Below, piece by piece: positions 42,490-63,495 of a stretch of 64,000 bases of DNA; the first letter of the stretch is position 1; each line of letters opens with the position of its first letter. The translations under genes were made by a program, and so were the position numbers. The notes under the pieces are model-generated. The model did not search any database, was not told where the DNA came from, and saw only the letters and a list, made by a program, of their open reading frames with translations. Origin of the DNA: Methanobacteriota archaeon. Lineage in GTDB: Archaea > Halobacteriota > Bog-38 > Methanoflorentales > Methanoflorentaceae. Location of the stretch: NCBI GenBank assembly GCA_963720465.1, contig OY970393.1, positions 2,249,765 through 2,313,764 on the forward strand. Direction: 5' to 3'.

Positions 42490-42593
42490 TTGAAACAGAC
42501 TTGTCTCCAGTATTTTTTACATACGTCATAGACGTGCCGGGCAGCGGATGCTTGTAGTGCTTCCAATCGACTCCGCTGACCCGTGCGTAGGAT
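42490..42593 (-). repeat. Orphan integrase 3'-end fragment A
   Basis: Encodes THG-VSGVDWKHYKHPLP-HVYDV..KYWRQV with small indels. Confidence 0.85.
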
Positions 42594-42808
42594 CTAAAGG
42601 GTTTTCCTTCCTTCTTCTTCGTTCCCGCACCCTAAGTTTTTCCAAAAACATAGCGAAAGCGAGATAGCAAGGGCTAAGCATGAGTTTGCCTAGGCTCCAG
42701 CTTTGTTAATTTCCTAAAGAGATTTGCATGCGTTCGCCCACGCTTACAACGCAACTAATAACGTCTTGCCGGGCAAAGTTAAAAAAAATTTAGACTGCAA
42801 GAGTTAAT

Positions 42809-43834
42809 ATGCCCGCCATAATCAATGTCGAGCTCGACCCTGAGAAAATATACGACACAGGAAAAAAGCTTCTCCAAGACATTTATGCAATAAAAACTGC
42901 ACGTGCAGCTAAGAATGATAAAGACAAGATTGAAGGTTTCGAAAGAGGGATCAAAGAGCTTTCTATCACCAGTATTGAAATAATCACTTTTTTCGAATCT
43001 TCGACCAAGTTGCAAAACGAATTAATCGATGACCCGACAGGCTTGGCAGAAAAGTTGCAGGCATCAGCAACTGCAGCCCTGCGCGAGCCACTGCGCAAAT
43101 ATGTAGACGAACGTTCTTCGCAAGAACAGCGACATTCTTTGCAACAGCAGGTTAATAAGTGGGTTCATATGCCGCCTGAGGCGTTACAAAGAGAACTCGA
43201 ACTCACCGAACTTTTGACTTCTGGCGCCAATAAAGTCAAGATAGACGGCAAGAGTATCAAACCTGACCAATATTTAAAGAAACTAGCCAAAGAGACGACA
43301 ACGCCACTGATCGCGGAATATGGAAACGTGGGCAGACCGAGAAGTGAGACGCCAGAGATTCATTTTAAACTTATCGGCAAAGCTTACAGTTCGGAGCCAG
43401 TGAAGAGTTTGCTAATCATGGCAGCGACTGAAACAAATGTGCCTGAAAAAGAGAAATTGTGTGAATTGGCAATAGATGAGTTTATCGTCACTTACGGGAT
43501 CTTGCAAATGCAGCTACTACTAAAAGAGTGGCAAGATAATGTCACACTGATTGGCAAGCTGATCGCAGAATTAGACAAGTCAACGCGCGAAAAAGTCGTT
43601 CATCAATTCATGCTAGATCATCCAGACGTTTACGAAAAATTCAAAAAGCTATACAACGATCTACAATTGGAAATTCCGAAAATCACTCTGCCGCTTTCAG
43701 CGACGGGCAATCGCGACGCGATCGTTTGGGAAGAGTGGAGGTTAATGGCCCTCATCGTTCAGTTCATGCAACACGTGAGACAGCATGCCGATTTTGTCAG
43801 CGAATCGATAACAAAAGCTAAAATTAACTCATAG
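42809..43834 (+). CDS. Hypothetical helical protein (cargo)
   Basis: 341-aa ORF. Confidence 0.65.
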   Translation: MPAIINVELDPEKIYDTGKKLLQDIYAIKTARAAKNDKDKIEGFERGIKELSITSIEIITFFESSTKLQNELIDDPTGLAEKLQASATAALREPLRKYVDERSSQEQRHSLQQQVNKWVHMPPEALQRELELTELLTSGANKVKIDGKSIKPDQYLKKLAKETTTPLIAEYGNVGRPRSETPEIHFKLIGKAYSSEPVKSLLIMAATETNVPEKEKLCELAIDEFIVTYGILQMQLLLKEWQDNVTLIGKLIAELDKSTREKVVHQFMLDHPDVYEKFKKLYNDLQLEIPKITLPLSATGNRDAIVWEEWRLMALIVQFMQHVRQHADFVSESITKAKINS

Positions 43835-43920
43835 GCTTCAAGGGTTTTCAAAGTGAGCTAGAGCGTACGATCTCACTTTTTTACCGATCGCTCCCGGCAA
43901 AAAAGCGTCATTCACCACCT

Positions 43921-44292
43921 TCAATTTTCGCGTTGTTTAAGACCATCTTTAAATAATATAGCTTGAGTTAAGAAAGAGTCAGTTTTTTCACTTCTGTCTT
44001 CATAACTCGATGTAAGTCTTTCAATGTTCGGAACATCACCTAGTCGGATGAGTTCGTTGATGCAAGTCGTCTCTTCTTTTCGACAGTTAGTCACCAATTT
44101 TATCAGCTGATCAACGATCCCAGCAATATCATCTACTGGTGCTCCGCTCGCATCTAACTCATGTGCTTTCCTAAAAAGCGCCTTTCCTTCCTTTTGGGCT
44201 TCCATACACTTCGCTAGAGCATCTTGATAACGCTTCAGCCAAAATACGCGTTCTTCGTCGCCTTTCATTATGCCACCTTGCTGTATTTGCAC
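43921..44292 (-). CDS. Hypothetical protein (cargo)
   Basis: 123-aa ORF. Confidence 0.5.
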   Translation of the reverse strand: MQIQQGGIMKGDEERVFWLKRYQDALAKCMEAQKEGKALFRKAHELDASGAPVDDIAGIVDQLIKLVTNCRKEETTCINELIRLGDVPNIERLTSSYEDRSEKTDSFLTQAILFKDGLKQREN

Positions 44293-44420
44293 TGACTGCT
44301 TCGATAAAGCTTCCGACTAACAACGCAAAACAACTTCCGCGCACGAAGCTGTATGGCCAGATTGAGTTATAACTCGCATCGAACGTCGATAGGGGCCCCT
44401 ACCAACTCTCGCACCCATTT

Positions 44421-44518
44421 ATCAGGAAGTTGATTTTGCGCCACGACTGCATATACACGCCAAACACGTGCTCCGGCAGCGGATGCTTGTAAAACCGCCA
44501 ATCGACACCCGATACCCC
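44421..44518 (-). repeat. Orphan integrase 3'-end fragment B
   Basis: GVSGVDWRFYKHPLPEHVFGVYMQSWRKINF. Confidence 0.9.
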
Positions 44519-44583
44519 GGTAAGGCGAGTGGGAATCTGCAAAAAGAGGTCGGTCACGTTCACTGTCTAACGTTCAAAGCGGG

Positions 44584-45177
44584 TTACCCCGGCTGACCCA
44601 AAAAGAGTTTAATTACAGCGACAATGAAAGTCAGCCCAGCGAAAGCTACCCCTATAAGTGGAACGACAAGCGGGAGATTGAGATTCCTTAAACGGCCGGC
44701 TGCCTTCCCTTCTCCGACGAGCTGCTGAGCTCCTAACAATGCTAACGCATCTAGTGATCTTCCTTCATTTGTGAGCCGCATAGCATGGATTGCTAAATAT
44801 TGTGCAGCTACAGAACACGTTAAACCGCTATTCCTAAGCTTCCCGGCGGTTGAACACAGATCAACATATTCATTATATATCGATAGGGTCGAGGGCAGAG
44901 GGAGCGCCGTTTTTTCAACAAAGCGCCTCGAAATAGCATCATTTTCGCGCCTCTGTTTGTTCCTTCTATCTATGTAAACAACTACAAGCGGAACGGTCAG
45001 TAAAATGCTTATCGCTATAATCGTTTCTAAAAAAAGTGCATTAGAAACGCTGAGTGCTATAGAACTAACCGTCGTTGCAAGTGAAACAAGTGTAGCGATT
45101 ACCGCAATAATTACGGCCACCCAGCTAATTGCAACGCTCGCTTTAGAGCGGGTTGAACCGCGTCTGGCTTCATCCAT
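44584..45177 (-). CDS. Hypothetical membrane protein (cargo)
   Basis: Three hydrophobic segments. Confidence 0.6.
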   Translation of the reverse strand: MDEARRGSTRSKASVAISWVAVIIAVIATLVSLATTVSSIALSVSNALFLETIIAISILLTVPLVVVYIDRRNKQRRENDAISRRFVEKTALPLPSTLSIYNEYVDLCSTAGKLRNSGLTCSVAAQYLAIHAMRLTNEGRSLDALALLGAQQLVGEGKAAGRLRNLNLPLVVPLIGVAFAGLTFIVAVIKLFLGQPG

Positions 45178-45328: not shown

Positions 45329-45600
45329 TCAATGTCGGTTTTTAAAACGGGCGAAATCTACCTCTTCCCAACTCTTCATATAAACATCATAGACGTTTTC
45401 TGGCAGCGGATGCTTGTAGTGCTTCCAATCGACTCCGCTGACACCGTGCGTCATAATATAAGCCCTGTTTGACTGATCCCACCCGATAGCATCGCCATGC
45501 TGTTCGCAAAACTTGCGAAGGTCGCCTAGCACGAAATGCCCTTTGAACTGCGACATAAGGATTTGCTGCCGTTTGACACATCAAAAAAGAACCATGCCCT
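45329..45600 (-). repeat. Orphan integrase 3'-end fragment C
   Basis: GHFVLGDLRKFCEQHGDAIGWDQSNRAYIMTHGVSGVDWKHYKHPLPENVYDVYMKSW. Confidence 0.92.
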
Positions 45601-45664: not shown

Positions 45665-46144
45665 GTGGTAATCCACATGTCAAAAATACTGGTTGTTTAT
45701 GAGTCGAAGTACGGTAACACGAAGCGTGTGGCTGAAACGATCGTACAAGGGATGCGGCAGGTTGAAGGAATAGACCCGACGCTTAGTGACATCACAGGAG
45801 TTGACCCCAACACCATCCTTAACTATGACGCAATTGTGATCGGCGGCCCGAATCATATGGGCGGCCCTACGAGAGGCGTCAAGAAGTTTATCGATAAAAT
45901 AGGCAAGCTCTCGTTAGCAGACAAGAAATTCGCGGTATTTGATACCTACGGTGGGGGGGATTTTGAAAAGGCAACAAAGAAGATGGAGCAAAGAATGCAC
46001 GAAAAGGCCCCTGCGATGAAGGCGGTGGCTCCCGGCTTGTCTATAAAGGTCGACGGGATGAAGGGCCCCATTAGTGAAGGGGAGCTTCCAAAGTGCGAGG
46101 AGTTTGGAGCGCAGATAGCGATGCAGCTGAAGGCTGCAACTTGA
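45665..46144 (+). CDS. Flavodoxin
   Basis: VYESKYGNT, YDAIVIGGP and AVFDTY motifs. Confidence 0.9.
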   Translation: MVIHMSKILVVYESKYGNTKRVAETIVQGMRQVEGIDPTLSDITGVDPNTILNYDAIVIGGPNHMGGPTRGVKKFIDKIGKLSLADKKFAVFDTYGGGDFEKATKKMEQRMHEKAPAMKAVAPGLSIKVDGMKGPISEGELPKCEEFGAQIAMQLKAAT

Positions 46145-46269: not shown

Positions 46270-46597
46270 ATGAAAAACGTGAAGATAGGTATTATGGTCT
46301 ATTCAAACGACCCTGAGACCATATGGAACGCCTTTCGATTCGGCAACTACGCGGTGAACGAGGGTGAGAACGTAAGGGTCTTCCTGTTAGGGAAGGGCGT
46401 GCAGAGCGAATCTCTTGACACTGAACAATTTCAAATCACTCAGCAAATGCGCTCGTTCGTCGAGAGGCGGGGCGATAGCGGCGTGCGAGACGTGCCTTAA
46501 AATCCATCACTTAGGAGGCTCGGAGCTATGCCCAATATCGACCCTGGCCGATTTGCACTCTCTCGTAGTCGAAAGCGACAGGCTTGTTATCTTTTAA
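46270..46597 (+). pseudogene. DsrE family protein, frameshifted
   Basis: SNDPETIWNAFRFGN, VFLLGKGV, then ACETCLK...CPIST in another frame. Confidence 0.8.
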
Positions 46598-46706
46598 ATA
46601 GATTAGCAAAGCGAGTGCATTTGTCTTAAGATATCACTATTAAATCAAAAAACAAAAAATAACTGAACCTTAAGCGACGCACAAACTAGATTTAGTCTGC
46701 GAATGG

Positions 46707-46994
46707 GTGGGAGGTGAGACATTGCAGAGCGACGAAGAACTGATGAGGTTAGCTCGAAAACGCGCTGAAGAGAGGGTCGGATTCTACATACACTTCACGA
46801 TTTACGTAGTGGTGAACCTTTTCCTCGTCGCCGTGTGGTGGTTTACCGGTGCCGGGTTCCCGTGGTTCGTCTTTGTGCTCGGTTTCTGGGGAATCGGATT
46901 AGTTGCACACGGCGCGAGCGTCTTTATGGGGGGTGGAATGACGGATAGGATCACTGAACGAGAATATCGGAAACTTAAACGAGGCAAGGAATAG
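46707..46994 (+). CDS. 2TM domain protein
   Basis: GFYIHFTIYVVVN...FPWF....FWGIGL.AH. Confidence 0.85.
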   Translation: MGGETLQSDEELMRLARKRAEERVGFYIHFTIYVVVNLFLVAVWWFTGAGFPWFVFVLGFWGIGLVAHGASVFMGGGMTDRITEREYRKLKRGKE

Positions 46995-47015
46995 CGAGCG
47001 GCCTTTTTAACTGGG

Positions 47016-47100
47016 CTAAGCGCCGAGTCTCACATCTTTCCAGTACTTCATGCAGACGTCATAAACGTACTCTTGTAGCGGATGCTTGTAAAACCGCCAA
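47016..47100 (-). repeat. Orphan integrase 3'-end fragment D
   Basis: WRFYKHPLQEYVYDVCMKYWKDVRLGA*. Confidence 0.9.
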
Positions 47101-47139
47101 ATTTGTTTATAGCGGCTGAGACTACTTCATCGACAACCT

Positions 47140-47646
47140 ATGCCAATGATTCAAGAATTGCTGTCAGATCACAGTGCCACCATTCGCGAGATAATCAATG
47201 ATGCTGCGAACGCGTACAAAGGCGTCATCCCGGATGACCGATGGAAAGAGCCCTACATGTCAGCTGAAGAACTCACCGATGAAATAGGAGCTGGCGTTCG
47301 ATTCTACGGATGGATCCAAGACGGCTTGCTGCTCGGTGTCGCAGGTATTCAGCACTTAGGTGACGTTGATTTGATCCGACACTGCTATGTGCGCACCGAA
47401 TGCCAGAGTCGCGGCATAGGTGGTGCCCTGCTGCAACACCTTCTGAGTCTTGCACAGGCCTCTCTGATCTTGGTGGGCACGTGGGAAAACGCGTCGTGGG
47501 CAGTTCGGTTTTATGAGCGCCATGGATTCGCGTTGGTTACGCGCGAGGAAACGAATGCCCTCCTGCAAGAGTCCTGGAACATTCCAAGGCGGCAAGTCGA
47601 AACATCGGTTGTGCTTAAGAAAAGACTTCCAGATTCACTGAACTGA
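47140..47646 (+). CDS. GNAT family N-acetyltransferase
   Basis: IINDAA.AYKGVIP, QSRGIGGALL and AVRFYERHGF motifs. Confidence 0.9.
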   Translation: MPMIQELLSDHSATIREIINDAANAYKGVIPDDRWKEPYMSAEELTDEIGAGVRFYGWIQDGLLLGVAGIQHLGDVDLIRHCYVRTECQSRGIGGALLQHLLSLAQASLILVGTWENASWAVRFYERHGFALVTREETNALLQESWNIPRRQVETSVVLKKRLPDSLN

Positions 47647-47736
47647 GAGTCTTAAGCATCAAAAATGATCTTCTGGCAGCGAAAAACCTCAACCCTAAAC
47701 TCGCGTGAAAAAAACTTGTAAGCTTCATACTAGAGG

Positions 47737-48768
47737 TCAGACTTTGAAGTTTACATCCCTCCAATACTGCATGTAAGCGTCGTAGACGTGCTCAGGCAAC
47801 GGATGCTTGTAAAATCGCCAATCGACTCCGGAGACGCCGTGTGTGAGAATGTAGTTCTTGTTGCTTTGATCCCATTGAATGATGTCGCCATGCTGCTCAG
47901 CGAATTTGCGAAGGTCACCGCAGACGAAGTGCCCGCCATTCACTAAAGGAATTTTTTTCCTCCTCGCCCATTTGTCGAAGTATTCATGCGCAAATATGCG
48001 GGTGTCGTCTTTTCGATTTCTGCCGTCTAGAAGCGGTGTCACAGCGTCAACAACACAAGGGTGTAATGGCACATAGTGCTGCATCCTGATTTTATCCTGT
48101 TGCGGCAGCACGTCAAGCACCGAAGGATCGCGCCGTAGAGCGGCCTGAAACTGCCCGACGGTCAGTTTGCGGATGGTGGCGAGAGGGCGTTGCCCTGTGT
48201 ATGCACTGAACAAAACAAGAGCCGTGTAGTTTTGGCGCTGTCGCGCGGTAAACTCATGGTTTTGACCGCCTTCTTCTATAGCGGATAGCAAATTTTTGAT
48301 ATCCTGTATCGTTGCAATACGTTGTGTTATCCGTTTGCTTTCCTTGACCGTTTTAGGCATCTCTAAAAACAGGTCAAACTCCTTATATCGCGTGTCGAAC
48401 CGCGTCTTCGTGAGATAACGTAGGAACGCTTTGGCGAAGTTCAGCATCTTACGTTTTGAATAGATGCCCGTGTATTTGGTGAGAACGAATTCACGGAACG
48501 CTTCTATTCGTGCTTTGTTTATCACGCCCTTCGTGACGTTCCAAAACGTCACCGAACACTTGTTAATCCATGGAATAGTCGCCGCAGTCACGCCTATACA
48601 TCGAAACGCAGTGTAATCAGTGAGTTCTTCCTCTCCGTACTCAAGTTCGAGCGACATCAGGGATTGGTGATGCCGCTGGTCGGGTGTCTTCGGTTCCTGC
48701 TCTTCTGTGCTCGCACAAGTAAGCTCATTCTTGGGTTTATATTCAAAAAGCCGCCCTGTGGAGGCCAC
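47737..48768 (-). CDS. Integrase C-terminal (catalytic) fragment int(C) of element 1
   Basis: Begins inside att; YTGQRP (R), DK, DLRKF and THG...FY tyrosine-recombinase residues. Confidence 0.9.
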   Translation of the reverse strand: MASTGRLFEYKPKNELTCASTEEQEPKTPDQRHHQSLMSLELEYGEEELTDYTAFRCIGVTAATIPWINKCSVTFWNVTKGVINKARIEAFREFVLTKYTGIYSKRKMLNFAKAFLRYLTKTRFDTRYKEFDLFLEMPKTVKESKRITQRIATIQDIKNLLSAIEEGGQNHEFTARQRQNYTALVLFSAYTGQRPLATIRKLTVGQFQAALRRDPSVLDVLPQQDKIRMQHYVPLHPCVVDAVTPLLDGRNRKDDTRIFAHEYFDKWARRKKIPLVNGGHFVCGDLRKFAEQHGDIIQWDQSNKNYILTHGVSGVDWRFYKHPLPEHVYDAYMQYWRDVNFKV

Positions 48769-49021
48769 GACGCGGGTTCGAATCTCGCCCTCGGCCTTTG
48801 ATTTTCTCTCTTGGCGCTGCCGAGCTAGTGGTTTCGCAAAATTGCTGTGTCAGCGCGTCTATCTTTGACTCTAAAGACTCAAGACGTTTTTCTGTAGAGG
48901 CGTGGTCTTTCGCTGTATGCATGAGGGTATCTACTGCCTCACTCAACGTTTTTCCTTCACATAAGGCACGGGCTTTTAAGGCTGAATAAACATCTTCATC
49001 AAGGCGGACCATCTTCGACAT
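48743..49021 (-). CDS. Probable int(N) of a second, tandem element (RHH-like plus coiled coil)
   Basis: Reads into att as GRGRDSNPRRGLHRA; EKRLESLESKI resembles ESRLSSLEFEI of the first int(N). Confidence 0.65.
   Translation of the reverse strand: MSKMVRLDEDVYSALKARALCEGKTLSEAVDTLMHTAKDHASTEKRLESLESKIDALTQQFCETTSSAAPREKIKGRGRDSNPRRGLHRAAF
48753..48809 (+). repeat. att direct repeat copy 2
   Basis: Identical to 26847-26903. Confidence 0.95.
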
Positions 49022-49402: not shown

Positions 49403-50074
49403 ATGAAAAAATATCTCGCCATACTCCTTATTGCGATAATGGCCACCACGGTCCTGAGTGCTGCAGGCGTCGTGACGACGCAGAAGGTGGCGGCAGTCCC
49501 TTCATCCACTCCCGTTGTCGTTAAATATCGCCCAGGCGCGACGTACATCTTTACCCCGTCACAGTTTAATGTAAGAACTTCGGTTAATTTTGGGTCGCTA
49601 GGCTCGAAATCGTTTGCGGCAACGTTCAACAACGCGCTTCGCACGTACGCAATCACGACACAGATTGGACAAGCAGCACAAGGCGATGCACAGATAGGCA
49701 TGGCCTGGCGGCTCACGCTGCCGTCGCACGGACCGTATTCCAACTGGGCTTACGTGGTAACACTACCGTGCCGAGTTACGGTCACGTTGGCTTATGACGT
49801 TTCAGCAAATGGACCCAACATAAACACCTGCGCTACAGCACGAGCACTCGTGGCGCATAACGCGCAAGGTGCTACCGTCTTCGGCAATGATCCCATACAT
49901 ACGCAGATTGGCATAAGGAGGCTAACCTTCGTAAGCAGCGTTGGACAAGTGTTTTCGTCTGGCGGCTTTGTTGGACTTGCGCGAATCCAAGCGGTAAGTC
50001 TAATGCAAGACGTGGGACAAGCACACGCGTCGCTCATTTGCAGCAGCATTGTGCTCGAGTTCCCGGCCAGTTAA
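49403..50074 (+). CDS. Secreted protein family member 1
   Basis: Signal peptide, YRPGATYIFTPSQFN...IVLEFP; hairpin plus T-run terminator follows. Confidence 0.75.
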   Translation: MKKYLAILLIAIMATTVLSAAGVVTTQKVAAVPSSTPVVVKYRPGATYIFTPSQFNVRTSVNFGSLGSKSFAATFNNALRTYAITTQIGQAAQGDAQIGMAWRLTLPSHGPYSNWAYVVTLPCRVTVTLAYDVSANGPNINTCATARALVAHNAQGATVFGNDPIHTQIGIRRLTFVSSVGQVFSSGGFVGLARIQAVSLMQDVGQAHASLICSSIVLEFPAS

Positions 50075-55131: not shown

Positions 55132-55485
55132 TTTGGATCAGAATCTTCTTAGACCATAGTGACCACATGCCTTGGTAATCTGTATATCGGACATTGCTGC
55201 TTTGCGACCAACAGGCCCGATCTGAAAAGAAGAAAAATGGGGAAGCTGAGAGCGACGAAAAAGTAAAACCAAGCAGCAAGCAGCATTTTGAGCCTGAATG
55301 TTGAATGTGTTTGAGTTTCAATCCAAACAAAACTCTTCATCGTCGCCATCAATTATGTTCAAAATCTTGAACGCAACATCCCTCGAATCTTGGGTGTAAT
55401 CTAGATTAGGTTCGAGTATTGCCTTACACACACCCCGAATTTTGTTGAGCTTCTTTTTGCACGTCATAACTACCTATTCCCAGCT

Positions 55486-55713
55486 TTATGCTGAACAATT
55501 TGGGCAGACTCTTTGCAACTGCCTAGCTGAGCTGCCTGAAAATGTGAACCCAGAGATTGATCGCAATAGGTATCTGGTTACAACAATGACCAAGATGACG
55601 AAAAGTGGCGTTATTTGTGCTTTTCCACTCCAGATAACATAAAAAACAATAGCATCTGTGACGGCAACGATGATGGTAGTGATAATAAGAGCTCTCACAA
55701 AGAGGTTGACCAT
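55486..55713 (-). CDS. Small two-helix membrane protein with CxxC
   Basis: GGAG Shine-Dalgarno sequence, two transmembrane helices, CPNC. Confidence 0.5.
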   Translation of the reverse strand: MVNLFVRALIITTIIVAVTDAIVFYVIWSGKAQITPLFVILVIVVTRYLLRSISGFTFSGSSARQLQRVCPNCSA

Positions 55714-55784
55714 GATTTTGCTCCTTACGCTTCAGTGTTGCTACTTGATTCAAAAACTGTTAGTGATAGTTTAGTTGCCTAGCT

Positions 55785-55915
55785 GAGTTTTGCCAATACT
55801 TTATATACACGTCATAAACGGGCTCAGGCAGCGGATGCTTATAGAACCGCCAATCAACTCCTGATACACCGTGAGTGAGAATATAGTTCTTATTTGACTG
55901 GTCCCACTGTAGGAT
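55785..55915 (-). repeat. Orphan integrase 3'-end fragment G
   Basis: ILQWDQSNKNYILTHGVSGVDWRFYKHPLPEPVYDVYIKYWQ. Confidence 0.92.
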
Positions 55916-56776
55916 CCCGCAGGGAGGATTTGCTCTCTGTTTTAGATGCGCTCATTAATGAGTGGGAGCGCTGCAACTCCGACCTCTGCACTAGTAGCTG
56001 TCATCATTCGGCTTGGTCATGCAGAAGGAGAAAAGATGCGTAAAGTGTTCAAACAACATACGGAATAAGCCGTTTCGTCCTCTTTGCGTACGAGACGTAT
56101 TCGTCGCCCAGCTTCGACGTTAAAACCCCTTCCTCCACGTGAATCCGATAACCGAAGGCCACCGCGAAGAAAGTTATGAGCACGAGCACAGCCCCCCCAC
56201 GAGTGCAGCACGAAGCCCAGTCATATGAAGATCATGAGCAGGCCGGTGTACGAGGGATGACGCACGAGTCGATATGGCCCGCGATCCACCACCGCCTGGC
56301 CCTCTTGAACGCCGACCCAGATAGGTCATCATAGTTCGCTGGGTTTTCTTTTCCTTCTTCAATATGCCTTTATCGCCGGTGTTGATTAACGACCAGGACA
56401 ACGGCACACAACGATGCTTAAAATCAAGAAGACGTTGTAGGCGATGAATTGACGAGGGAACCCCACACAACGCGGCACTCCTGCCGACCGTTATTCGCTA
56501 GTCATAATTCCCAACATGGCGATTTGGGGAAATGAACACCGCATTAGCGTGCTCCGTTTAAAAATCGACTAAACCGTTGAGGAGGAATTGTGTACCGTCG
56601 AAGCTCATTTTGGGCTTTTCGCTTGGAACCGACACAATATGAGGATTTAAATGTCGAGTTTTGCACGGTTGCCCACTGCAAAGGCGAGATCGTCCAAGAG
56701 ATATAGAAGAGCGTTAGGCAAAAAATGCACTAGGAGGGTAAAAATGCTCTAGGAGGCGAAAAGTTGACAGAACCTT

Positions 56777-57274
56777 TCATGTCTTGTAAATGAAAATCTT
56801 GTTTTGGCTTTTGACGAGCTTCATATTTTCTATTCGGTGCCAATAGCTTATGATCCTTGTTCCACTTCGTGTTTCAGCCCTTATTTTCATCGCGATTCTG
56901 TTGTTTATCCTTCCTGGGTATTGGAATATGAATATAACATCAGCGTCAGAAATGCCTTGCTTGAAAAGGTTTCCTAGGATGACTTGGGCTTTTCTTGCTC
57001 TGAGCTTGGCTATAAACCATCGAATAGGCTCTAACTCAACTCCCTTCACATGATCGCATACCTTTGAGGCTTCTATAAGGGCTTCTCCTGTTCCACATCC
57101 AAGGTCGTAGAAGACTTCATCTTTCTTAAGGTCTGCCAGTTTAATGGCCTCAGCTGCAATCGTCCTCGGAGTACGGCCATATGCTGCGCCTCCTGCCAGC
57201 ATAGGATAGACAGGAGAAGCTAGGAGGTATGCGACTATCAGAACAATTATGCCCAGTATTACATCCGTACTCAT
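56777..57274 (-). CDS. SAM-dependent methyltransferase with N-terminal transmembrane helix
   Basis: FYDLGCGTG, GVELEP and ADVIF motifs. Confidence 0.85.
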   Translation of the reverse strand: MSTDVILGIIVLIVAYLLASPVYPMLAGGAAYGRTPRTIAAEAIKLADLKKDEVFYDLGCGTGEALIEASKVCDHVKGVELEPIRWFIAKLRARKAQVILGNLFKQGISDADVIFIFQYPGRINNRIAMKIRAETRSGTRIISYWHRIENMKLVKSQNKIFIYKT

Positions 57275-57290
57275 TTCATCAGCAACAGCG

Positions 57291-57440
57291 TTAGATTGTC
57301 AAGACGACATTTCCCCAGTACTTCATGTAGATATCGTAAACTGAAGCAGGAAGCATCCTTTGAAATTGCCAGTCCTCTCCAGAAACGCTGTGCGCGAGTA
57401 TGTAGTTCTGGTTTGACTGATCCCCGCACAGTATGTTGGC
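57291..57440 (-). repeat. Orphan integrase 3'-end fragment H
   Basis: DQSNQNYILAHSVSGEDWQFQRMLPASVYDIYMKYWGNVVLTI*. Confidence 0.85.
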
Positions 57441-57532
57441 CCTGCTACTGCTCGAACCTGCCATTTTTTTCGCGGCCATGTCCGTGTCGAAGGAAACGCC
57501 AAGTCTTTTTACAGTCCAAACCGCGCCCGAAT

Positions 57533-58338
57533 CTAGACGCGCAAGTGAAAAATATTGTACATTCTGCTCCGATCGGTAAAGTTCATCCACCTCTCTACCT
57601 GCGCGCCCCACGCTGGGTCTCGCGGGACGTTCTTGAAAGCGGAGAATTGATCCAGGACTGTGATGCGCTTGTCCCATTTTTCCATCTTGCGTGCGTCTTT
57701 CAGCACCCATTTGGTCGCGATGTCTTTAATACCCGTTCGACGCAAACCCCAGTTGCTGATGAGCCTCCACAATCTTGACTGGGCGTTCAGCACGATTTCG
57801 GCGCCCGCGAAATTGTCCGCCAGCAGCAAGAAAAACTGTTTAACCTGTGACTCGTCTAACCAATCGAGCACACCTCCGGCTAGCATGAACACGCCGTTTT
57901 CTTTGTCTCTGACGCTCTCGCACCACCTCGCGTCGAAAAGCGACCCTGCGAGGTACGTTGTTCGGTCTTCTTCAGGGCTAATCGCCTTCTTGTGTCGATC
58001 ACGTTTGGCAGATCGAGATCATACCACTGAAGCAATCCGTTGTCGACACGGTAGAAGGTGGCGTCGAGTCCGGCCCCAACGTTAATGACCGACGCTTGTT
58101 GATGTTCATTGACATACGCACGTATTTTGTCGTCGAACTGTTTTGCTCGCGCAACGATAGCGATAGTTCCTTCGAGTCCTAGAGCCGCAACCTTTGTTGA
58201 AAAATCATAGTCAATCTGATCGACAAGCTCGATCGCTTTCGCGTCGTTGAAGATCGAAGGAAACTCTCGACTGAATTTCGCCCGCGCGCACAACGGAGCC
58301 AACAGCGTCGCTTCAACGTCGTGAAAATCGATTTTCAT
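57533..58338 (-). pseudogene. LCM/TcmP-like O-methyltransferase, frameshifted
   Basis: TLLAPL.ARA, IDYDF, NVGAGLD and WYDLDLP, then AGGVL..LDE in another frame. Confidence 0.8.
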
Positions 58339-58471
58339 TCTCGCACCCGTCGCACTTTCTGTAGCAGATTGCTCCGCGATTATAAGCAGGTCCCGTACTG
58401 TGAGTATTATCGCCGTCCGCGCTACGTGCCATGGTGACGGTTCCGCGTTACTAGGCCGCCTAAGCGCGCCG

Positions 58472-58978
58472 CTATGCCAAAACGATAGTTCCGTCCAGAT
58501 ACCCGGTAAAGGTTCCGTGTGCACTTTGGTGTAGCGAAAAATGTCCGCTTCCTCCGATGACGCGGGCGAATCGTCCGGTGCCATTGTCAATCTGATATGT
58601 GCTGCTGCCAGGTGGCACGTGTAAGCTAATCGTGTCGCCATTTGCGGTCTTGATTGTCATCGTAAATGGGGCTAAGTAATATACAACTTGGCGTCCATCC
58701 ACCTTCGACCATCCACCGTACGTGAAGAAGCCAGTCCCACTGTACAACGTGGCCCCGAGGCCCGGGCTGCCGTACTTTCCTGAAAAGACTCCTGCAAAAG
58801 GCACGGTGAGATGCCCACACGTCTTGTACGCGGTTTGCTGCGCCGCGTCTGCTGGGAGCACACAGGTCGCCATCAGCGGCAACACTGCGACGCTTATTAC
58901 CATTAACGCGATTGTGAGTTTTCGTAGCATCGATTTCCTCCCTATGCCTGCTTGAGTAGCAGGCTCATAGCTTATCAT
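58472..58978 (-). CDS. Secreted hypothetical protein
   Basis: Signal peptide MLRKLTIALMVISVAVLP; GTGRFA..GSG beta-rich pattern. Confidence 0.7.
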   Translation of the reverse strand: MISYEPATQAGIGRKSMLRKLTIALMVISVAVLPLMATCVLPADAAQQTAYKTCGHLTVPFAGVFSGKYGSPGLGATLYSGTGFFTYGGWSKVDGRQVVYYLAPFTMTIKTANGDTISLHVPPGSSTYQIDNGTGRFARVIGGSGHFSLHQSAHGTFTGYLDGTIVLA

Positions 58979-59061
58979 CGTGTTTTTGATTTAAAGTTGG
59001 CGTTATTGCCTCACCCGTCATTCGCTCTGCGGCGTTCCTATTTTCACTTGGCTTAAATTGT

Positions 59062-59205
59062 TTAGATTTTAAAGCGGACGCCTGTCCAGTACTGCATGTA
59101 GATATCATAAACCGAATCAAGCAACGGCTGCTTCTAAAATCACCAGTCAACTCCAGATACACCGTGAGTGAGAATATACTTCTTATTTGACTGATCCCAC
59201 TGTAA
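59062..59205 (-). repeat. Orphan integrase 3'-end fragment I
   Basis: LQWDQSNKKYILTHGVSGVDW*F*KQPLLDSVYDIYMQYWTGVRFKI*. Confidence 0.9.
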
Positions 59206-59253
59206 TCGTATTAAAAACAAAAACTTAAGTCAGAGTGCTCGCAACCTTTCCGT

Positions 59254-59664
59254 ATGCCAATCGATCATCGAACTGAGTATATACCTGGAATTCCAGCAGC
59301 CACCATTACAACCCCCACTAATAATACGCGGGTGGAAAACTCAGTATTTATTAAGGGCACGGCCCAAAACATTGGGGAAGAATACAGTCTATGGCTTGTA
59401 TTTTATGATTACAGCGCGAACCGCCATTACCCACAAGATGGGCCCCTTGCTATCTCCACAAACGGTCAATGGGAGATGACCGCATCTTTTGAGAGCAGCG
59501 GAAGGTATGATATTACTGCGCTCGCTGCAGACAAAAACGCCAACGACAGTCTCTTACTATACCAAGCAGCCAGTGAGTCGAGTGGTGATTATCCGGGGTT
59601 GCCTGCCCTTCCTTCAGGATGCATAACGCTGGCGTCAGTCACCGTCTCTAGAACGCAGCTTTAA
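59254..59664 (+). CDS. Ig-like hypothetical protein
   Basis: ITTPTNN..V....IKGT...HYPQ...NGQW pattern. Confidence 0.6.
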   Translation: MPIDHRTEYIPGIPAATITTPTNNTRVENSVFIKGTAQNIGEEYSLWLVFYDYSANRHYPQDGPLAISTNGQWEMTASFESSGRYDITALAADKNANDSLLLYQAASESSGDYPGLPALPSGCITLASVTVSRTQL

Positions 59665-59859
59665 CTGTGTGCTATTCGTTCAAGCAGGTTTACTGAAGCG
59701 AGGGACGAAAAACACGCACAGATCCAGAAGCCGTATTATGGTTGCGATTCGGCGGCCGCGACAAATTATCTCAGATGATCGGGTTCCGTTCCGATCAATG
59801 CGGACGTCCGCGTTGCTTACCATATTGATAGTTCCGCTTTACGAGGCCATGCCTACACG

Positions 59860-60003
59860 TTATTCGCCCGCGCAACGTGCGCGATAGCAAGCGAGCAAAC
59901 GCTTGATGATATCGTCAAACGTTTCACCGCGCTTGCCTATAGCGTCTATTTCGGCTTTCGTCTCAAAGTGTACTGATATCGTCGCCCGATCTTCACGTTT
60001 CAT
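59860..60003 (-). CDS. Small ribbon-helix-helix / antitoxin-like protein (47 aa)
   Basis: ATISVHFETKAEIDAIGKRGETFDDIIKRLL; below the ORF-track size cutoff. Confidence 0.7.
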   Translation of the reverse strand: MKREDRATISVHFETKAEIDAIGKRGETFDDIIKRLLACYRARCAGE

Positions 60004-60031
60004 ATTTTCTTACGCATCGGGGTACGTGGTC

Positions 60032-60370
60032 TCACGCAATCGACCGCTGCAAGCGTAATGCTTCGCTTTCCGTGATCGGCTTAACGACCCTGGATAGGTA
60101 CTCGCAGACCTCGTCGGCGGCTTCTGGCGGCACATCGAATAAGTCGAGGTATAAGTCGGTCATGCGCCAAAATTCGTCGCGATCCTTTACTAAATCGTAT
60201 TCAAGCCCTTCTAGGTCAATAGAACCGAGCCTCGTTTTATCGAGTAGGCGTCCGCTTCGCGTCCGCTTCTCCAAAACTCCATGAAGCGTAACATCTCCAT
60301 GTCGGACTTGCCTTCGTGGGCCGTTTTGTTGTCTCACGAAGTGGAATCGGTATTCGACGTCGGTAGCCAT
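60032..60370 (-). CDS. Hypothetical protein
   Basis: 112-aa ORF co-oriented with the RHH gene. Confidence 0.5.
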   Translation of the reverse strand: MATDVEYRFHFVRQQNGPRRQVRHGDVTLHGVLEKRTRSGRLLDKTRLGSIDLEGLEYDLVKDRDEFWRMTDLYLDLFDVPPEAADEVCEYLSRVVKPITESEALRLQRSIA

Positions 60371-60840
60371 CCCTTACCCTCGTATCATACGTAATTAGTA
60401 GTAACGGTAACACAATATATAACCGTTCCCAAGATTGTTACAATAGTAACGTTCTTAATAAAAACAGAAATATTATCAGAACTATTAAAAGCGCCGCCTC
60501 GGTTAGCGTTTCGTTTTTATCACCGTGTTTGTTCATAACCTGACTAATTATCCGCGTTAGCGGCCTCCTTTCTGATCCTGCATATCTGGGCCGCTACGTG
60601 GTGTGTTGCAATAAGCTTGTTAGCGACGGCATGGGGGGTTCGTTAACGACAAAACCGCTGTCGATATCGCGCAGGACTTAGAATTACTCGGTTTCGTTGA
60701 TAATCACCGAAGAGGGTGGGGACGTGAAACCGCTTTATTATTTAGTCCTCAGGTTCTATTGACCGTAAGTATATGGTCGATACGCTTACGTCGATGGTGG
60801 TGTGAAGTGGCTAATAGTAGTGCAAACACAGTGACTATCA

Positions 60841-61053: not shown

Positions 61054-61102
61054 TGACTGTAGTTAAAACGGCTCGGGCTTGTTAAGGAGCCCCCTCCGAC
61101 AT

Positions 61103-61387: not shown

Positions 61388-61843
61388 TTTTCGCCTCCTG
61401 GTCGGTGTTTTTTACATGAACACGTGACATTATAGCGTGATCGCTTTGTTCTGATGCTGATATTAGCGTCAAAGAGCCCGTTATTCTTAGTGGCGAGTTC
61501 CAAACAAGCTTCAAAAGGTAAATGGCTGCCGGGCTAGTCTCTAATATAGCATGGACGGCGGTACTGCTCGCAATATGGAACCTGCTCTTTATCACCACGC
61601 AGCTGACAATGGGCGTATTTTTCGCACCTTTGGCAGTTCATCATGATTGCATTTCATGCAAGCCAGCTTAAAGAGGGCTATCTGCGCGGTGCGAAACTAA
61701 CCAGGCTATGAATGCCACAGTCAGCGCATTGCTGAGCTAAGGGGAGGCTAAACAAAACACGCAGCGAGGTCGAGCGAAAATGGTATAATGTCTCGTATGG
61801 TGTGTATGTGAATCGTAAATGAAACATTTTGGAGAATATCCGC

Positions 61844-62160
61844 ATGACAACCATCACCGATGAGTTTATGCAGCAGATGCTGTCCAAAACCAAGCAGTAT
61901 TGTATCGTAATTTTGGAGGCCGGGCCTAATAGGTATGAGGAGGGAATGGAAAAAATCATTTGGGAGCACGGATGGAAAAAATCATTTGGGAGCACGGAAG
62001 AAGAAATTTTGCACTTCGCGCGGATTGCGTGTTATCTATTGTGTGTGCGGTCTCCGATGAGAGTAACGTCTCTGGCGTTGGAATCTTTAATGCTCCAGTC
62101 GAAGAAGTAAGAAAGATTATGGATGAAGACCCGGTGGCCACGAACCCAACTGCGAAGAGA
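61844..62160 (+). pseudogene. YCII-like protein disrupted by a 26-bp tandem duplication
   Basis: ATGGAAAAAATCATTTGGGAGCACGG at 61946 and 61972; IIWEHGRRNFALR...GVGIFN...IMDEDP. Confidence 0.7.
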
Positions 62161-62176
62161 GCGCGCAAAAGAAGCT

Positions 62177-62259
62177 CAGATAGTCAACGTACACCTACCC
62201 AGTATTTCATGTAGACGTCATACAATGAATCAGGCAGCGGATGCCGATAATCGCTCCAT
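62177..62259 (-). repeat. Orphan integrase 3'-end fragment J
   Basis: WSDYRHPLPDSLYDVYMKYWVGV. Confidence 0.8.
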
Positions 62260-62408
62260 TCGGCGCTATTCCGTTCTCGCATAAATGATCGTCGCGGAAG
62301 AAGTGGATTTCAGACAAATCTTGTGTGAATCTCACGGCAAAATGACTTTGCCACCAAGCTAGGGTGTGTTTCTTAAGGGGAAGTTAGCTAAAAAAAGAGA
62401 GGTATAGC

Positions 62409-62828
62409 ATGAAAAAAATAGCAGTCTTTCTAGTAGCGGCAGCGGTTGCGCTTTCAATCGTCGGCGTAGTGGGAGTAGTCGCACAAACGTCGTCAACTAC
62501 GATGACGGCGACGACGACGGCAACAGCGACGCCGATGGCAACGACGACCACCACCACTTCAGTGCCGCAAGGTTGCTCGGCAAAAGCTCCGACGACATCG
62601 TCCACCGTGACATCAACTCCGTCAGGATGCTCCGCTGCGCCCACGACAACGTCTTCGTCAGGATGCTCAGCAGCCACGACAACGTCTTCGTCAGGATGCT
62701 CAGCAGCCACGACATCGTCGACATCCACGTGCTGTCCAGCGACGGCCTGCGCACAGTGCACTAGCTGCACGACAACCGCGTCTAGCACGAGCAGTTCAGC
62801 GATGACGACGGGGTGTTCGGCGAAATAA
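62409..62828 (+). CDS. Secreted Cys/Ser/Thr-rich protein (CAQCTSC family)
   Basis: Signal peptide, GCSA repeats, CCPATACAQCTSC. Confidence 0.75.
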   Translation: MKKIAVFLVAAAVALSIVGVVGVVAQTSSTTMTATTTATATPMATTTTTTSVPQGCSAKAPTTSSTVTSTPSGCSAAPTTTSSSGCSAATTTSSSGCSAATTSSTSTCCPATACAQCTSCTTTASSTSSSAMTTGCSAK

Positions 62829-63364
62829 AAAGGTATAAACGAATATTTGCACGTCCGGCATGAACCGTTTAGAACGGTGACGGGATCAAGCGGCTGTGTC
62901 AGATACGGGCTGTACCAGGCAGCAGGCTCGACCGCCGAGAGTTCGAATTCATCTAAAACTCTCGGTGACCCGCTTGTTGGCGGTGGCGACTGTTTGCAAG
63001 AGTCAAGCGAAGCAGCAGCTAGGGAATAGCCTGGTTTCTTTTCTTTTTTTGTGCTGTAGCGGTTCACTAATGGCCCTCGCCGTAAGCCATCGAACTGGGT
63101 AGAGGATCCACCCGTTGCTCGCTTCTGGAAACCAGCTAGTGCATCACTACCCCTGCTTGCGTACGCCCAGCTCCAGAAGGGTATTTTGCTCATTTCGTAA
63201 GGCAGCATCTTGCGTACTTCTTGTAAAGGGACTGACAGTGTTTGCCAGTTTGAATGGATTAACGGACGTTCCCCCGACGATCCAGTAGTCTGACGTCCCA
63301 TCCGTTAAGAAGCCGACTGCTGTAGCTCTTGGTAGTACATTTAGTGTTACGGATGGAAGTCACC

Positions 63365-63495
63365 GGAACTTACCGTTCCCCGGTACTTCGTGTTGACATC
63401 AAAAACGTGCGCCGGCAGCGGATGCTTGTAAAATCTCTAGCCCCCCCGAAACACCGCATGCCCGAAAACATAGGCGGCGCTATTCCGTTGACTTT
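63365..63495 (-). repeat. Orphan integrase 3'-end fragment K (degenerate)
   Basis: AYVFGH-GVSG...RFYKHPLPAHVFDVNTKY. Confidence 0.8.

Follow-up and report, generated by a model that had tools for sequence, protein, structure and literature searches.

In a window of 64,000 nt (the whole stretch of DNA analysed) from a methanogen-related archaeon, the 3' end of a tyrosine integrase gene recurs as 11 orphan fragments, here called tails, with cargo genes between them, and our analysis suggests that mobile elements exchange and accumulate cargo at this conserved integrase end. All 11 fragments proposed in an earlier, sequence-only reading were recovered, all on the minus strand, by tblastn with the 343-aa int(C) as query, by a protein HMM of five full integrase copies and by a DNA HMM (nhmmer) of the last 450 nt of int from nine copies; none of these searches found a twelfth elsewhere in the window. 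Each is a 5'-truncated copy of the integrase 3' end, 79-246 nt long in nhmmer coordinates. As that reading stated, they differ from each other, with pairwise identities mostly of 70-85%; the exception is a 50-nt stretch (columns -103 to -54 of tail 42491) that is 98% identical to tail 45351 and is followed by divergence. We consider it somewhat probable that the tails are orphaned 3' ends of SSV-type int genes still joined to their former downstream DNA, and that they accrued through homology, much as Rhs orphans do.

The tyrosine integrase of the window is encoded by a split gene and belongs to the SSV-type, or "suicidal", class. Such archaeal integrases and their integrated elements were reportedly treated by She et al. 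in 2001. The window integrase is part of a 22-kb element that is bounded by a 60-nt repeat of the 3' part of tRNA-His (98.3% identity between attL and attR); int(N) lies at the attL end and int(C) at the attR end (Table 1). The end of the int(N) ORF, ...KAEGEIRTRVVASTGP, spans att, and the same peptide runs on into int(C)-type proteins such as P0002; about 20 int(N) paralogues adjoin tRNA fragments elsewhere in the genome. R194, K226, R287, H310 and Y320 are invariant across 25 int(C) homologues.

The fragments had been described as one array, which did not stand: four lie inside the tRNA-His element and seven outside attR. The inner four are just downstream of int(C), within the att-bounded element and between int(C) and the backbone. 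The outer seven are part of an older, backbone-less tandem remnant beyond attR. An int(N)-like ORF of an older neighbouring element enters attR in a frame that differs from that of int(C), its peptide ...KIKGRGRDSNPRRGLHRAAF being att read in that different frame. The outermost tail, 63367-63484, is 0.5 kb from the contig end. The window tails did not arise by decay of full genes in place, since their 5' ends directly adjoin cargo ORFs or other cassettes; a radical-SAM block with 95% identity, for instance, stops at 53496, precisely the start of the next tail. In support of the local order, Logan short-read contigs of four runs span several tails (e.g. 42551-44914, 46987-48782, 51478-53558, 53822-55559 and 55535-60831) and show no differences from the window; since the assembly may derive from three of these runs, those three are not independent support.

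Table 1. Integrase tails, cargo and host element in the window
Feature	Position	Strand	Evidence or remark
tRNA-His (GTG), integration target	26817-26890	+	ARAGORN
attL (tRNA-His 3' part + 16 nt)	26847-26906		repeated at attR
int(N), N-terminal integrase half	26842-27357	-	reads through attL
Element backbone	37367-41019	-	D5_N protein, unnamed ORF, ParB-like protein
D5_N primase-helicase-like protein	37367-39391	-	Pfam D5_N, E = 8e-25
ParB-like protein	40111-41019	-	Pfam ParB_N, E = 9e-15
Orphan tail 4, innermost, adjoins backbone	42491-42596	-	nhmmer columns 337-445, E = 6e-17
Cargo behind tail 44426	42809-44292		341-aa (+) and 123-aa (-) ORFs, no Pfam family
Orphan tail 3	44426-44519	-	nhmmer columns 351-444, E = 6.5e-16
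197-aa membrane-like ORF (cargo)	44584-45177	-	only a weak sub-threshold Pfam match
Orphan tail 2, longest	45351-45596	-	nhmmer columns 199-446, E = 4e-60; frame still open
Flavodoxin	45665-46144	+	Pfam Flavodoxin_5, E = 1e-12
Broken ORF, earlier labelled DsrE	46270-46597	+	46270-46500: no Pfam match
2TM protein	46707-46994	+	Pfam 2TM, E = 1.5e-20
Orphan tail 1	47021-47100	-	nhmmer columns 369-448
GNAT acetyltransferase, directly behind live integrase	47140-47646	+	Pfam Acetyltransf_10, E = 2e-11
int(C), catalytic part of split integrase	47737-48768	-	PHROG integrase phrog_1, E = 1e-5
int(N)-like ORF of older neighbouring element	48743-49021	-	ORF translation
attR	48753-48812		repeat of 26847-26906
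Orphan tail, outer set	53391-53497	-	nhmmer columns 344-450
Radical-SAM (MiaB-like) cassette	53496-54964	-	Pfam Radical_SAM + UPF0004
Orphan tail, outer set	54989-55191	-	nhmmer columns 237-439
Small membrane-protein cassette	55520-55837	-	joined to tail 55787-55920
Orphan tail, outer set, mosaic	55787-55920	-	nhmmer
DOT1-like methyltransferase	56777-57274	-	Pfam DOT1, E = 2e-8
Orphan tail, outer set	57292-57453	-	nhmmer columns 289-452
LCM-like methyltransferase, two frames	57533-58641	-	Pfam LCM, E = 1.4e-9; ORFs 57880-58641 and 57533-57892
Orphan tail, outer set, two in-frame stops	59063-59204	-	tblastn, nhmmer
Orphan tail, outer set	62188-62266	-	nhmmer columns 362-440
Orphan tail, outer set, degenerate	63367-63484	-	nhmmer columns 328-442, E = 3e-10

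The cargo labels given earlier are borne out for the flavodoxin, 2TM, GNAT, MiaB-like radical-SAM and methyltransferase genes, but not for the "DsrE" ORF. Cargo uses both strands, often the one opposite to the tail.

Tails and the cargo downstream of them move together, as had been anticipated, and recur at other loci beside different neighbours. We identified 13 in-register pairs of tails that share at least 100 nt past the stop; only three pairs, plus the pair 1696283/378351, share sequence upstream of the tail. A window orphan and its cargo can correspond to the 3' end and neighbour of a live integrase in another genome: positions 46548-47100 (tail 1, spacer and 2TM gene) are 89% identical over 553 nt to the last part of a full integrase ORF of 410 aa and the 2TM gene beside it at locus L014 (genome G006). 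Within the genome of the window, 331599-331951 likewise matches the tail 1/2TM region at 89% identity. Similarly, a block homologous to 42809-44292 lies 114 nt past a full-integrase stop codon at locus L022 (79% identity), where int is 90% identical to that of the window and the three units that separate tail 44426 from the int stop in the window are missing. In L020 and L021 the same two int halves (88%) surround a 7.3-kb element free of tails. Units are thus polymorphic in their presence, which favours accretion through homology. The radical-SAM cassette matches 556275-557748 (95%) and 1906625-1907993 (84%), with the same left boundary in the three contexts, 13 nt past the stop. Copies of the membrane-protein cassette (367024-367342, 87%; 332507-332816, 82%; 1905884-1906198, 81%) share their right end, about 15 nt past the gene stop.

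Across the whole genome, nhmmer found 63 matches: 10 span the full 450 nt, and the other 53, about 60-400 nt long, are 5'-truncated tails; head-only fragments number only about four (protein HMM). Adjacent matches less than 10 kb apart lie on the same strand in 40 of 43 cases and on opposite strands in three (binomial p = 3e-9), a pattern not due to chance. At 61 independent, non-redundant metagenome loci, co-oriented tails number 37 on the downstream side of a full int and eight upstream (1.43 versus 0.45 per 10 kb, p = 0.002), alongside three opposite-strand tails and five head-only fragments. The predicted co-orientation with the integrase and enrichment downstream of it hold in both data sets. 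Tails occur in 24 of 24 related genomes, with 595 summed matches to a 60-aa tail query and 227 to a 220-aa body query, sums that are not copy numbers. The 3' end is also the most conserved DNA of the gene: among nine full genes, mean pairwise nucleotide identity in 60-nt bins is mostly 0.36-0.60 and reaches 0.69 in the last two bins.

Among live integrases, nearly identical bodies can carry divergent tails, a mosaic structure expected if the tail of a resident integrase can be replaced. This pattern (identity of at least 0.88 in columns 1-240 and at most 0.80 in columns 270-430) was found in 37 of 3403 pairs, and the reverse, a similar tail on a divergent body, in 0 of 3403 at the thresholds used; across live-integrase pairs tails are on average more conserved (0.70 versus 0.60). 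Breakpoints in live integrases fall at conserved blocks, near column 250 (GDLRKF) and columns 300-315 (QWDQSN), and those of orphan tails at -86/-78, -54 and -32/-20. In 30-nt bins, int(C) of the window is 0.90-1.00 identical to that of L023 over columns 1-300 and 0.50-0.73 over columns 301-450, so its last ~150 nt (47740-47889) differ in origin from its body. Between L023 and L029, identity is 96-99.9% outside a segment that runs from IQWD in int into a methyltransferase gene; this segment points to a recent event with a homologous left and an illegitimate right junction.

Under the homology-driven reading, the last ~150-250 nt of int, from the GDLRKF block through the presumed catalytic Tyr to the YDVYMKYW end, would act as portable homology, being the most conserved DNA common to the many related elements of this archaeal family. 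Recombination within this stretch could take place between co-resident, tandemly integrated or incoming elements, and the other end of the exchange would usually be an illegitimate join. Such an exchange could replace the resident tail together with its cargo, insert a new tail-plus-cargo unit and leave the old tail as a 5'-truncated orphan, or loop out the units between two tails. Only products retaining one complete integrase would spread, and this filter would account for the survival of 3' ends, their co-orientation and their place directly behind int(C). Recombination with the live gene may remove long orphans, leaving short ones to accumulate and then decay. We infer this selection argument, the order of events and the recombination pathway, which could be host homologous recombination or the integrase itself. 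What the sequences show directly is the layout of the arrays, the tie between tails and cargo, the mosaicism of live integrases, the variability of junctions and arrays free of att and int(N). Several observations count against this reading. It needs a separate illegitimate join for each orphan 5' end, and dozens in one genome are many for a rare event; the 70-85% identity between tails is low for classical homologous recombination; plain tail-to-tail recombination does not predict sharp shared cassette edges outside the tails; 12 of the 53 tails stand alone; no near-identical donor or displaced tail was found for the window tails, whose best match to any other tail is 0.73-0.88; and no recombination event was caught directly in the Logan contigs, which show only short-sided joints at tails, as repeats would also give.

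The same final structure, also with one illegitimate join per unit, could arise by site-specific tandem accretion at the same tRNA followed by random deletion of backbone, int(N), att and integrase body, the tails remaining by chance and their homology being irrelevant. Tandem integration does occur here, as seen from the older int(N)-like ORF that enters attR beside the live int(C), from the seven outer tails in a backbone-less remnant and from a related locus (L021) with an int(N)-att-int(C) read-through beside a second int(N) at the tRNA. Composite islands of this kind are known from CIME/ICE of streptococci and the ssrA islands of Dehalococcoides, where successive integrations at one tRNA-type site are followed by deletion, internal att repeats are kept between units and truncated integrase genes occur. 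The arrays described here share the build-up at a tRNA-type site and the truncated integrase genes but have no att repeats, the repeated element being the integrase tail. As the sequence-only reading required, tails do not come with an att or int(N) of their own: 0 of 20 tRNA-fragment att copies were found inside arrays, and no int(N) homologue between tails. The outcomes named in that reading as fatal to it did not appear. Random deletion, moreover, predicts bodies as often as tails, against the 53 tails and about four head-only fragments of the genome, and the 48 and five of the metagenome loci; 51 of the 53 tail 5' ends fall in the last 325 nt (the other two at columns 56 and 128). The four inner tails, between int(C) and backbone of an att-bounded element, and the mosaicism of live integrases at conserved blocks also argue against it, and we regard tandem accretion as an unlikely source of the arrays.

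The sequence-only reading had likened the array to an integron. A dedicated platform modelled on attI and attC, in which the integrase or a partner recognises its own 3' coding site and inserts and excises circular tail-plus-cargo cassettes, would explain discrete units with the same edges in different contexts, and it fits the 11 of 53 tails that start at columns 362-375, the several mosaic breakpoints at -86/-78 beside the presumed catalytic Tyr codon and the different tails of four close relatives joined near columns 300-315. Int-pTN3, a related kind of archaeal integrase, offers a precedent in homology-dependent recombination on 104-bp segments, as described in the part of PMC5495485 relied on here. 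The integron analogy failed at the crossover, for which no common point exists: tail 5' ends scatter over columns 56-391, breakpoints occupy at least three positions, all of them conserved blocks, a pattern that homology by itself would produce, and cargo lies on both strands. By eye, junctions share no motif or repeat. In-frame stops occur in at least 21 of the 53 tails, many tails are degenerate or short, and around the integrases of L020, L021 and L026, which are closely related to that of the window, up to 10 kb is free of tails. No circular tail-plus-cargo units were seen in Logan contigs. Like integrons, these loci place an integrase gene beside an array of small, unrelated, promoter-poor units that are separated by repeats and vary in content and order between relatives. 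Unlike in integrons, the repeat is the coding 3' end of the integrase itself rather than attC and decays as a pseudogene, units lie on both strands, and there is neither a single crossover point nor an attI or Pc arrangement. We think a cassette platform quite improbable and prefer accretion through homology because of the variable tail 5' ends and crossover points and the decaying tails.

That the tails are kept for a function, supplying the catalytic tyrosine in trans, spare ends for integrase repair or regulatory DNA for cargo, is very improbable: a few retain both a start codon and an open frame (e.g. orphan tail 2, ORF 45329-45556, 75 aa), a tail covers the conserved motifs from R287 to Y320 and recombination with the main gene can reactivate Rhs orphans (in the sections of PMC3967940 drawn on here), against which stand the in-frame stops, only 5 of 53 tails free of both stop and apparent frameshift (in an HMM alignment that over-counts frameshifts), start codons absent from most, the wide range of lengths, cargo often on the other strand and no Rfam match in 40000-64000.

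As described in portions of PMC7253208 and PMC8371274, SSV-type, or type I, integrases likewise have att inside the integrase ORF, are split into int(N) and int(C) at the element ends by tRNA-gene integration, form hybrid int(N)/int(C) pairs with att read in different frames, and belong to plasmid-like elements with a primase-helicase. The integrase studied here differs in showing no detectable sequence similarity to either solved recombinases or Pfam and in its mesophilic, mcrA-bearing Halobacteriota hosts from peat, soil and sediment; tandem integration, present here, is absent from the data sets of Badel et al. 2020, according to the parts of PMC7253208 used. The same portions of both papers make no mention of orphan 3'-end arrays. 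Closer in form are the orphan toxin-immunity modules of Rhs/CDI systems, which, in the excerpts of PMC3967940 consulted, are also co-oriented, 5'-truncated copies of a conserved part downstream of the full gene, each linked to the gene behind it; there too an orphan in one genome is the main-gene end in another, and recombination between main gene and orphan is the proposed engine. Here, by comparison, the hub is a recombinase instead of a toxin, tail and cargo have no functional pairing, the cargo is heterogeneous and on either strand, and the arrays sit in mobile elements and move with them.

Two direct repeats of the 3' part of tRNA-His (attL and attR, 60 nt, 98.3% identical) and the two halves of a split integrase stand at both ends of a live element, which is thus 22 kb in size. 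The junction peptide of int(N)-att-int(C) is present in one frame in unsplit relatives, for example the protein P0002. The geometry is of the SSV type (suicidal, type I), with attP inside the integrase ORF and a tRNA as target. Suicidal integrases present a paradox, as integration itself destroys the gene. A split gene and a tRNA target are common to SSV-type integrases and the window element, but sequence similarity to the SSV1, pTN3 and pT26-2 integrases was not detected. The backbone of the element includes genes for a D5_N primase-helicase-like protein and a ParB-like protein. Searched against PHROG, int(C) matched two integrase families (E = 1e-5 and 4e-5). No family was found for the integrase in Pfam at E <= 1, likewise none in NCBIfam, phmmer against PDB sequences returned no recombinase match at E <= 10, and an IMG/VR scan found no relatives. 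The gene has more than 750 relatives, some named integrase by JGI. The catalytic motif of tyrosine recombinases is R..K..xxR..H/W..Y; R194, K226, R287, H310 and Y320 are invariant among the 25 relatives compared, and we read this set as a tyrosine-recombinase signature.

The window forms the final 64 kb of one 2.31-Mb contig. Its genome encodes McrA, the relatives of that genome are MAGs labelled Euryarchaeota or Halobacteriota archaeon, and DNA near-identical to the window is contained in freshwater-sediment and soil metagenome runs. The sequence-only reading had counted 11 minus-strand fragments of the integrase 3' end, here called tails, and each of three queries recovered all 11: tblastn with the 343-aa protein of 47740-48768 (minus strand), a protein HMM of five full copies, and a DNA HMM built from nine full copies over their last 450 nt, whose positions we refer to as columns. 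The tails are 79-246 nt long and all lack the 5' part; ten reach to within about 10 nt of the gene end and one to within 15 nt. Cargo ORFs or other cassettes abut their 5' ends, as where a radical-SAM block (95% identical to a copy elsewhere) stops at 53496, the exact start of the adjoining tail. About 900 nt of decayed gene would not fit in between, so the tails are physically truncated, and we rejected on the same ground a detectability bias in which full-length decayed genes are seen only by their conserved end. At least 21 of the 53 tails in the genome contain in-frame stops, which means that the tails are not kept as coding sequence; decay was judged by in-frame stops only, as the gappy alignment close to the variable end overstates frameshift counts. 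Most window tails are bridged without differences by Logan contigs from four runs, three of which may be the source of the assembly.

Features of the window and of compared loci (window positions unless another source is named)
Feature	Position	Strand	Remark
int(N)	26842-27357	-	171-aa ORF, reads through attL
attL	26847-26906		
Tail, inner set	42491	-	start
Tail, inner set	44426	-	start
Tail, inner set	45351	-	start
Tail, inner set	47021	-	start
int(C)	47737-48768	-	begins within attR
Older int(N)-like ORF	48743-49021		reads into attR in another frame than int(C)
attR	48753-48812		
Paralogous ORF	49403-50074	+	no Pfam family
Paralogous ORF	50503-51195	-	no Pfam family
Paralogous ORF	51551-52180	+	
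Tail, outer set	53391	-	start
Tail, outer set	54989	-	start
Membrane-protein cassette	55520-55837		includes last 66 nt of its tail
Tail, outer set	55787	-	start; 3' reach within 15 nt of gene end
Tail, outer set	57292	-	start
Tail, outer set	59063	-	start
Tail, outer set	62188	-	start
SSGCSAA-repeat ORF	62409-62828	+	139 aa; no Pfam family
Tail, outer set	63367	-	start
Head-to-head tail and full integrase	genome 370705-371976		
Radical-SAM copy	genome 556275-557748		95% identical
Tail after tRNA-His fragment	genome 1538872-1539147		truncated at column 209
Body-tail fusion	L006:10064-10634 (= G010:C7)		
183-nt unit	L023:8132-8930; L029:8319-9291		copy number differs

What had been described as one array is borne out in its 11 tails and falls into two sets, four inside the element and seven beyond attR. 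The inner set lies between the int(C) stop and the backbone of the tRNA-His element. The outer set follows attR, the one internal att in the window, which divides the live element from an older remnant. The region beyond attR is the remnant of an earlier neighbouring element, and with the older int(N)-like ORF, which meets the live int(C) at the att in a different frame, it represents tandem suicidal elements with a dead hybrid gene. Suicidal-integrase elements can thus sit in tandem, unlike in the Thermococcales data sets of Badel et al. 2020 (PMC7253208), in which, according to the accessible text of that paper and of the 2021 review (PMC8371274), tandem integrations were not seen. By eye the older ORF looks ribbon-helix-helix-like, a likeness with no family call behind it. 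Between it and the outer tails are three secreted-looking paralogues of about 210-230 aa with a common signal-like N-terminus and the motif Y(R/K)PGA.YIF.P.QFN. Another ORF, among the outer tails, is Thr/Ser/Cys-rich; its start is signal-like, SSGCSAA units repeat within it, and a long antisense ORF overlaps it.

Tails are abundant well beyond the window. The DNA HMM had 63 matches in the genome, comprising 10 that cover the full 450 nt and 53 tails (12 of them solitary), and the protein HMM found about four pieces with the opposite truncation (head-only). Adjacent matches within 10 kb share a strand in 40 of 43 cases and are opposed in three (p = 3e-9); the fragments are not randomly oriented. 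The pattern extends across a family of mcrA-bearing soil and peat archaea, with hundreds of tails and tail matches in 24 of the 24 genomes searched (two genera), 21 of which also have body matches. Summed over these genomes the tail query gave 595 matches and the body query 227, figures that are matches and not copy numbers, the tail query being better conserved. Seventeen other genomes of the phylum yielded a single weak DNA match (six genomes) or none (11). We also collected 80 metagenome loci anchored on a full integrase, or 61 once near-identical repeats were removed. These have 37 co-oriented tails downstream of the full integrase, eight upstream and three on the other strand, as well as five head-only pieces; 21 of the 61 loci have at least one downstream tail, and the downstream excess is significant with flank lengths allowed for (p = 0.002). 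The expectation of co-oriented arrays downstream of full integrases is thus borne out in this genome and in the metagenome loci. Four loci (L045, L052, L055 and L056) have an internal integrase-like piece (HMM 151-214), neither tail nor head, about 2.27 kb downstream of the full integrase in all four.

The same tail-plus-cargo pairs were anticipated to recur elsewhere with other neighbours, and they do. The membrane-protein cassette is found at three further loci (81-87% identity), with a constant right edge about 15 nt past the gene stop and different neighbours. The radical-SAM cassette occurs at two further loci (95% and 84% identical) with its left edge unchanged, and the 2TM cassette recurs with its tail at genome 331.6 kb (89%). 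The order membrane protein then radical SAM is common to the window and genome locus 1905.9-1908 kb. Across the genome, 13 in-register tail pairs share sequence for at least 100 nt beyond the stop, and three pairs share it upstream of the tail; the pair 1696283/378351 is alike (95.8%) in its upstream flank and for 34 nt into the tail, and diverges from there. Cargo types include GNAT, flavodoxin, 2TM, radical SAM, methyltransferases and unknowns, with no evident tie to the integrase C-terminus. In one case (L014, in genome G006), the end of a 410-aa integrase ORF and its 2TM gene are 89% identical over 553 nt to window 46548-47100, so that an orphan of the window is the live end, with its neighbour, of a full integrase elsewhere. 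The 95%-identical radical-SAM copy contains only a 210-aa ORF and looks broken; there is no clear tail upstream of it and a very degenerate tail-like stretch downstream.

Live integrase genes are themselves mosaic. Their last 160 nt are the best-conserved DNA of the gene (identity 0.69 versus 0.36-0.60 elsewhere). Pairwise comparison of 83 distinct full 3' regions gave 37 pairs of 3403 with an identity of at least 0.88 in columns 1-240 yet at most 0.80 in columns 270-430, and none with the reverse pattern at >=0.92 and <=0.72. The window integrase matches that of locus L023 at 0.90-1.00 in every 30-nt bin to column 300 (window 47890) and at 0.50-0.73 after it; other relatives break at about column 250. 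Mosaicism extends to the orphan tails, which switch at -86/-78, -54 and -32/-20 nt relative to the end. Conserved blocks (GDLRKF, QWDQSN and GVDW/YKHPLP) are where the breakpoints fall, and such a spread over several blocks is expected from homology-dependent exchange, not from a single core site. Along 15 kb, loci L023 and L029 agree at 96-99.9% identity apart from one segment, which runs from after IQWD in the integrase to inside a methyltransferase gene, contains an orphan tail in L029, and has a homologous left and an illegitimate right junction. These loci, 97% identical otherwise, also differ in copy number of a 183-nt unit adjoining an orphan tail.

Presence and absence of units also vary among close relatives. 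In L022 (integrase 90% identical) the homologue of window 44279-42834, followed by ParB, starts 114 nt after the integrase stop, and the window has three additional tail-bounded units between the integrase and this block. We used L022 as a presence/absence comparison only; its tail was rejected as an orthologue of orphan 44426, as about three quarters of positions agree (rough count) and the intergenic DNA is unalignable. In L020 and L021 the same int(C) and int(N) (88%) flank a 7.3-kb element without tails. Such differences may be insertions or deletions. The best matches of the window tails to any other tail are at 0.73-0.88, with no donor closer than 0.88. L006 has an integrase body (HMM 2-129) that passes directly into a tail (HMM 247-309), the product of an internal deletion or of joining to an orphan; this tail is 81% identical to window orphan 45351 versus 72% to the live tail of the window. 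At the head-to-head tail and full integrase, a 72-nt stretch is 100% identical and the remainder has diverged, which looks like gene conversion between inverted copies.

Taken from sequence comparison, these patterns suggest that related elements recombine through the conserved integrase 3' end, a homology they have in common, and thereby swap, stack and lose the genes that follow it. Being common to related elements, this end would provide portable homology. Exchange within a tail, if its other side is closed by an illegitimate join or by a second tail, could replace, add or delete tail-plus-cargo units, and only outcomes that retain one complete integrase would spread. It would follow that 3' ends, not bodies, accumulate, in one orientation and directly behind int(C). 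The exchanges may be catalysed by host recombination or by the integrase; the accessible text on Int-pTN3, an archaeal integrase, reports homology-dependent recombination catalysed on 104-bp segments (PMC5495485). Badel et al. 2020 (PMC7253208) and the 2021 review (PMC8371274) describe hybrid integrases, and exchange of modules between tandem elements by homologous recombination; the accessible parts of both make no mention of orphan tail arrays. Our literature search (limited terms, main texts in so far as accessible) returned no description of arrays of integrase 3' fragments.

Pure tandem accretion of elements followed by random deletion is a weaker fit than exchange through the shared 3' end. 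It leaves unexplained the mosaic live integrase genes, the restriction to the last third of the integrase gene, and the lack of att and int(N) in the arrays. In the genome, none of the 20 tRNA-fragment copies stands between tails, such copies being placed at element ends, and none of about 20 int(N) homologues lies inside an array. Simple decayed tandem elements, in which each tail keeps its own att and int(N), are rejected on these searches. The arrays also differ in this respect from CIME/ICE-type composite islands, which have internal att between accreted units. Outside the window, one tail directly follows a 34-nt tRNA-His 3' fragment on the same strand, which misfits normal attL/attR geometry.

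An integron-like site-specific platform, the form in which the array had been cast, is unlikely, as the junctions are variable. Tail 5' ends are spread over columns 56-391, the breakpoints fall at several positions, and by eye no common motif precedes the tail starts except within duplicated families. Integrons have one defined crossover in attI/attC-type sites, which the window arrays lack, and an IntI-type integrase (the Pfam phage-integrase family with the IntI insertion), to which the window integrase, without a Pfam family, does not correspond; Rfam has no family in 40000-64000. We likewise give little credence to a true cassette-capture platform, in which the split-gene integrase itself would recombine DNA within the conserved 3' end of its coding sequence, perhaps as Int-pTN3 does, so that units are mobilised, stacked and reshuffled. 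If true, the recombinase gene itself would be the attachment site, an archaeal counterpart of integrons. Two other roles were dropped: the tail as pseudo-att (a weak likeness to the tRNA-His core by eye, and the same tail in elements targeting tRNA Asp, Val and Gly) and as cargo promoter (much cargo is on the opposite strand).

The comparison with Rhs/CDI orphan modules holds in part. Here too 5'-truncated, co-oriented copies of the conserved 3' part of a gene lie downstream of the full gene, and in one case an orphan is a live end elsewhere; for Rhs, the accessible text reports orphans in one genome that are main-gene ends in another (PMC3967940). It fails in the pairing of tail and cargo: in Rhs/CDI the variable end and the following gene form a functional pair (toxin and immunity), whereas the window cargo has no evident pairing.

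How archaeal integrative plasmids and viruses gain and exchange cargo is poorly understood, and exchange through the integrase 3' end offers a simple and testable rule. Rows of orphan tails would be a record of swaps, stacking and losses, usable as a natural marker that delimits cargo modules and for dating acquisitions. Tail arrays could also serve to distinguish recombination driven by the integrase from that driven by the host.

Reads had been proposed as a place to look for circular tail-plus-cargo units, and none was counted in the Logan contigs. Three tail-to-tail joints (42568>44476, 47016>55844 and 47840>57394) are each confined to a single run and have sides no longer than 30 nt, and repeats often yield such joints. 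The joint 55838>55520, which goes back 319 nt, is present in all four runs at genome-like depth. It may derive from a paralogous membrane cassette followed by another tail, but at the 367-kb copy about 55 nt lie between its sides; it was not counted as a circle. Loose ends of Logan contigs at the att (48753-48809) carry tRNA-His-like sequence with other flanks. The junction of the int(C) lineage (84-90% nucleotide identity) with tRNA-His exists in two opposite forms: int(C) comes after the antisense 3' half in the window (48730-48830), L020 and L022, and after the sense 5' half in L023 (5330-5470), L024, L029 and L001, where the two meet in the anticodon loop (CCCTGTGGAG, or reverse complement). 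These opposite joints point to switching of target or orientation at one tRNA.
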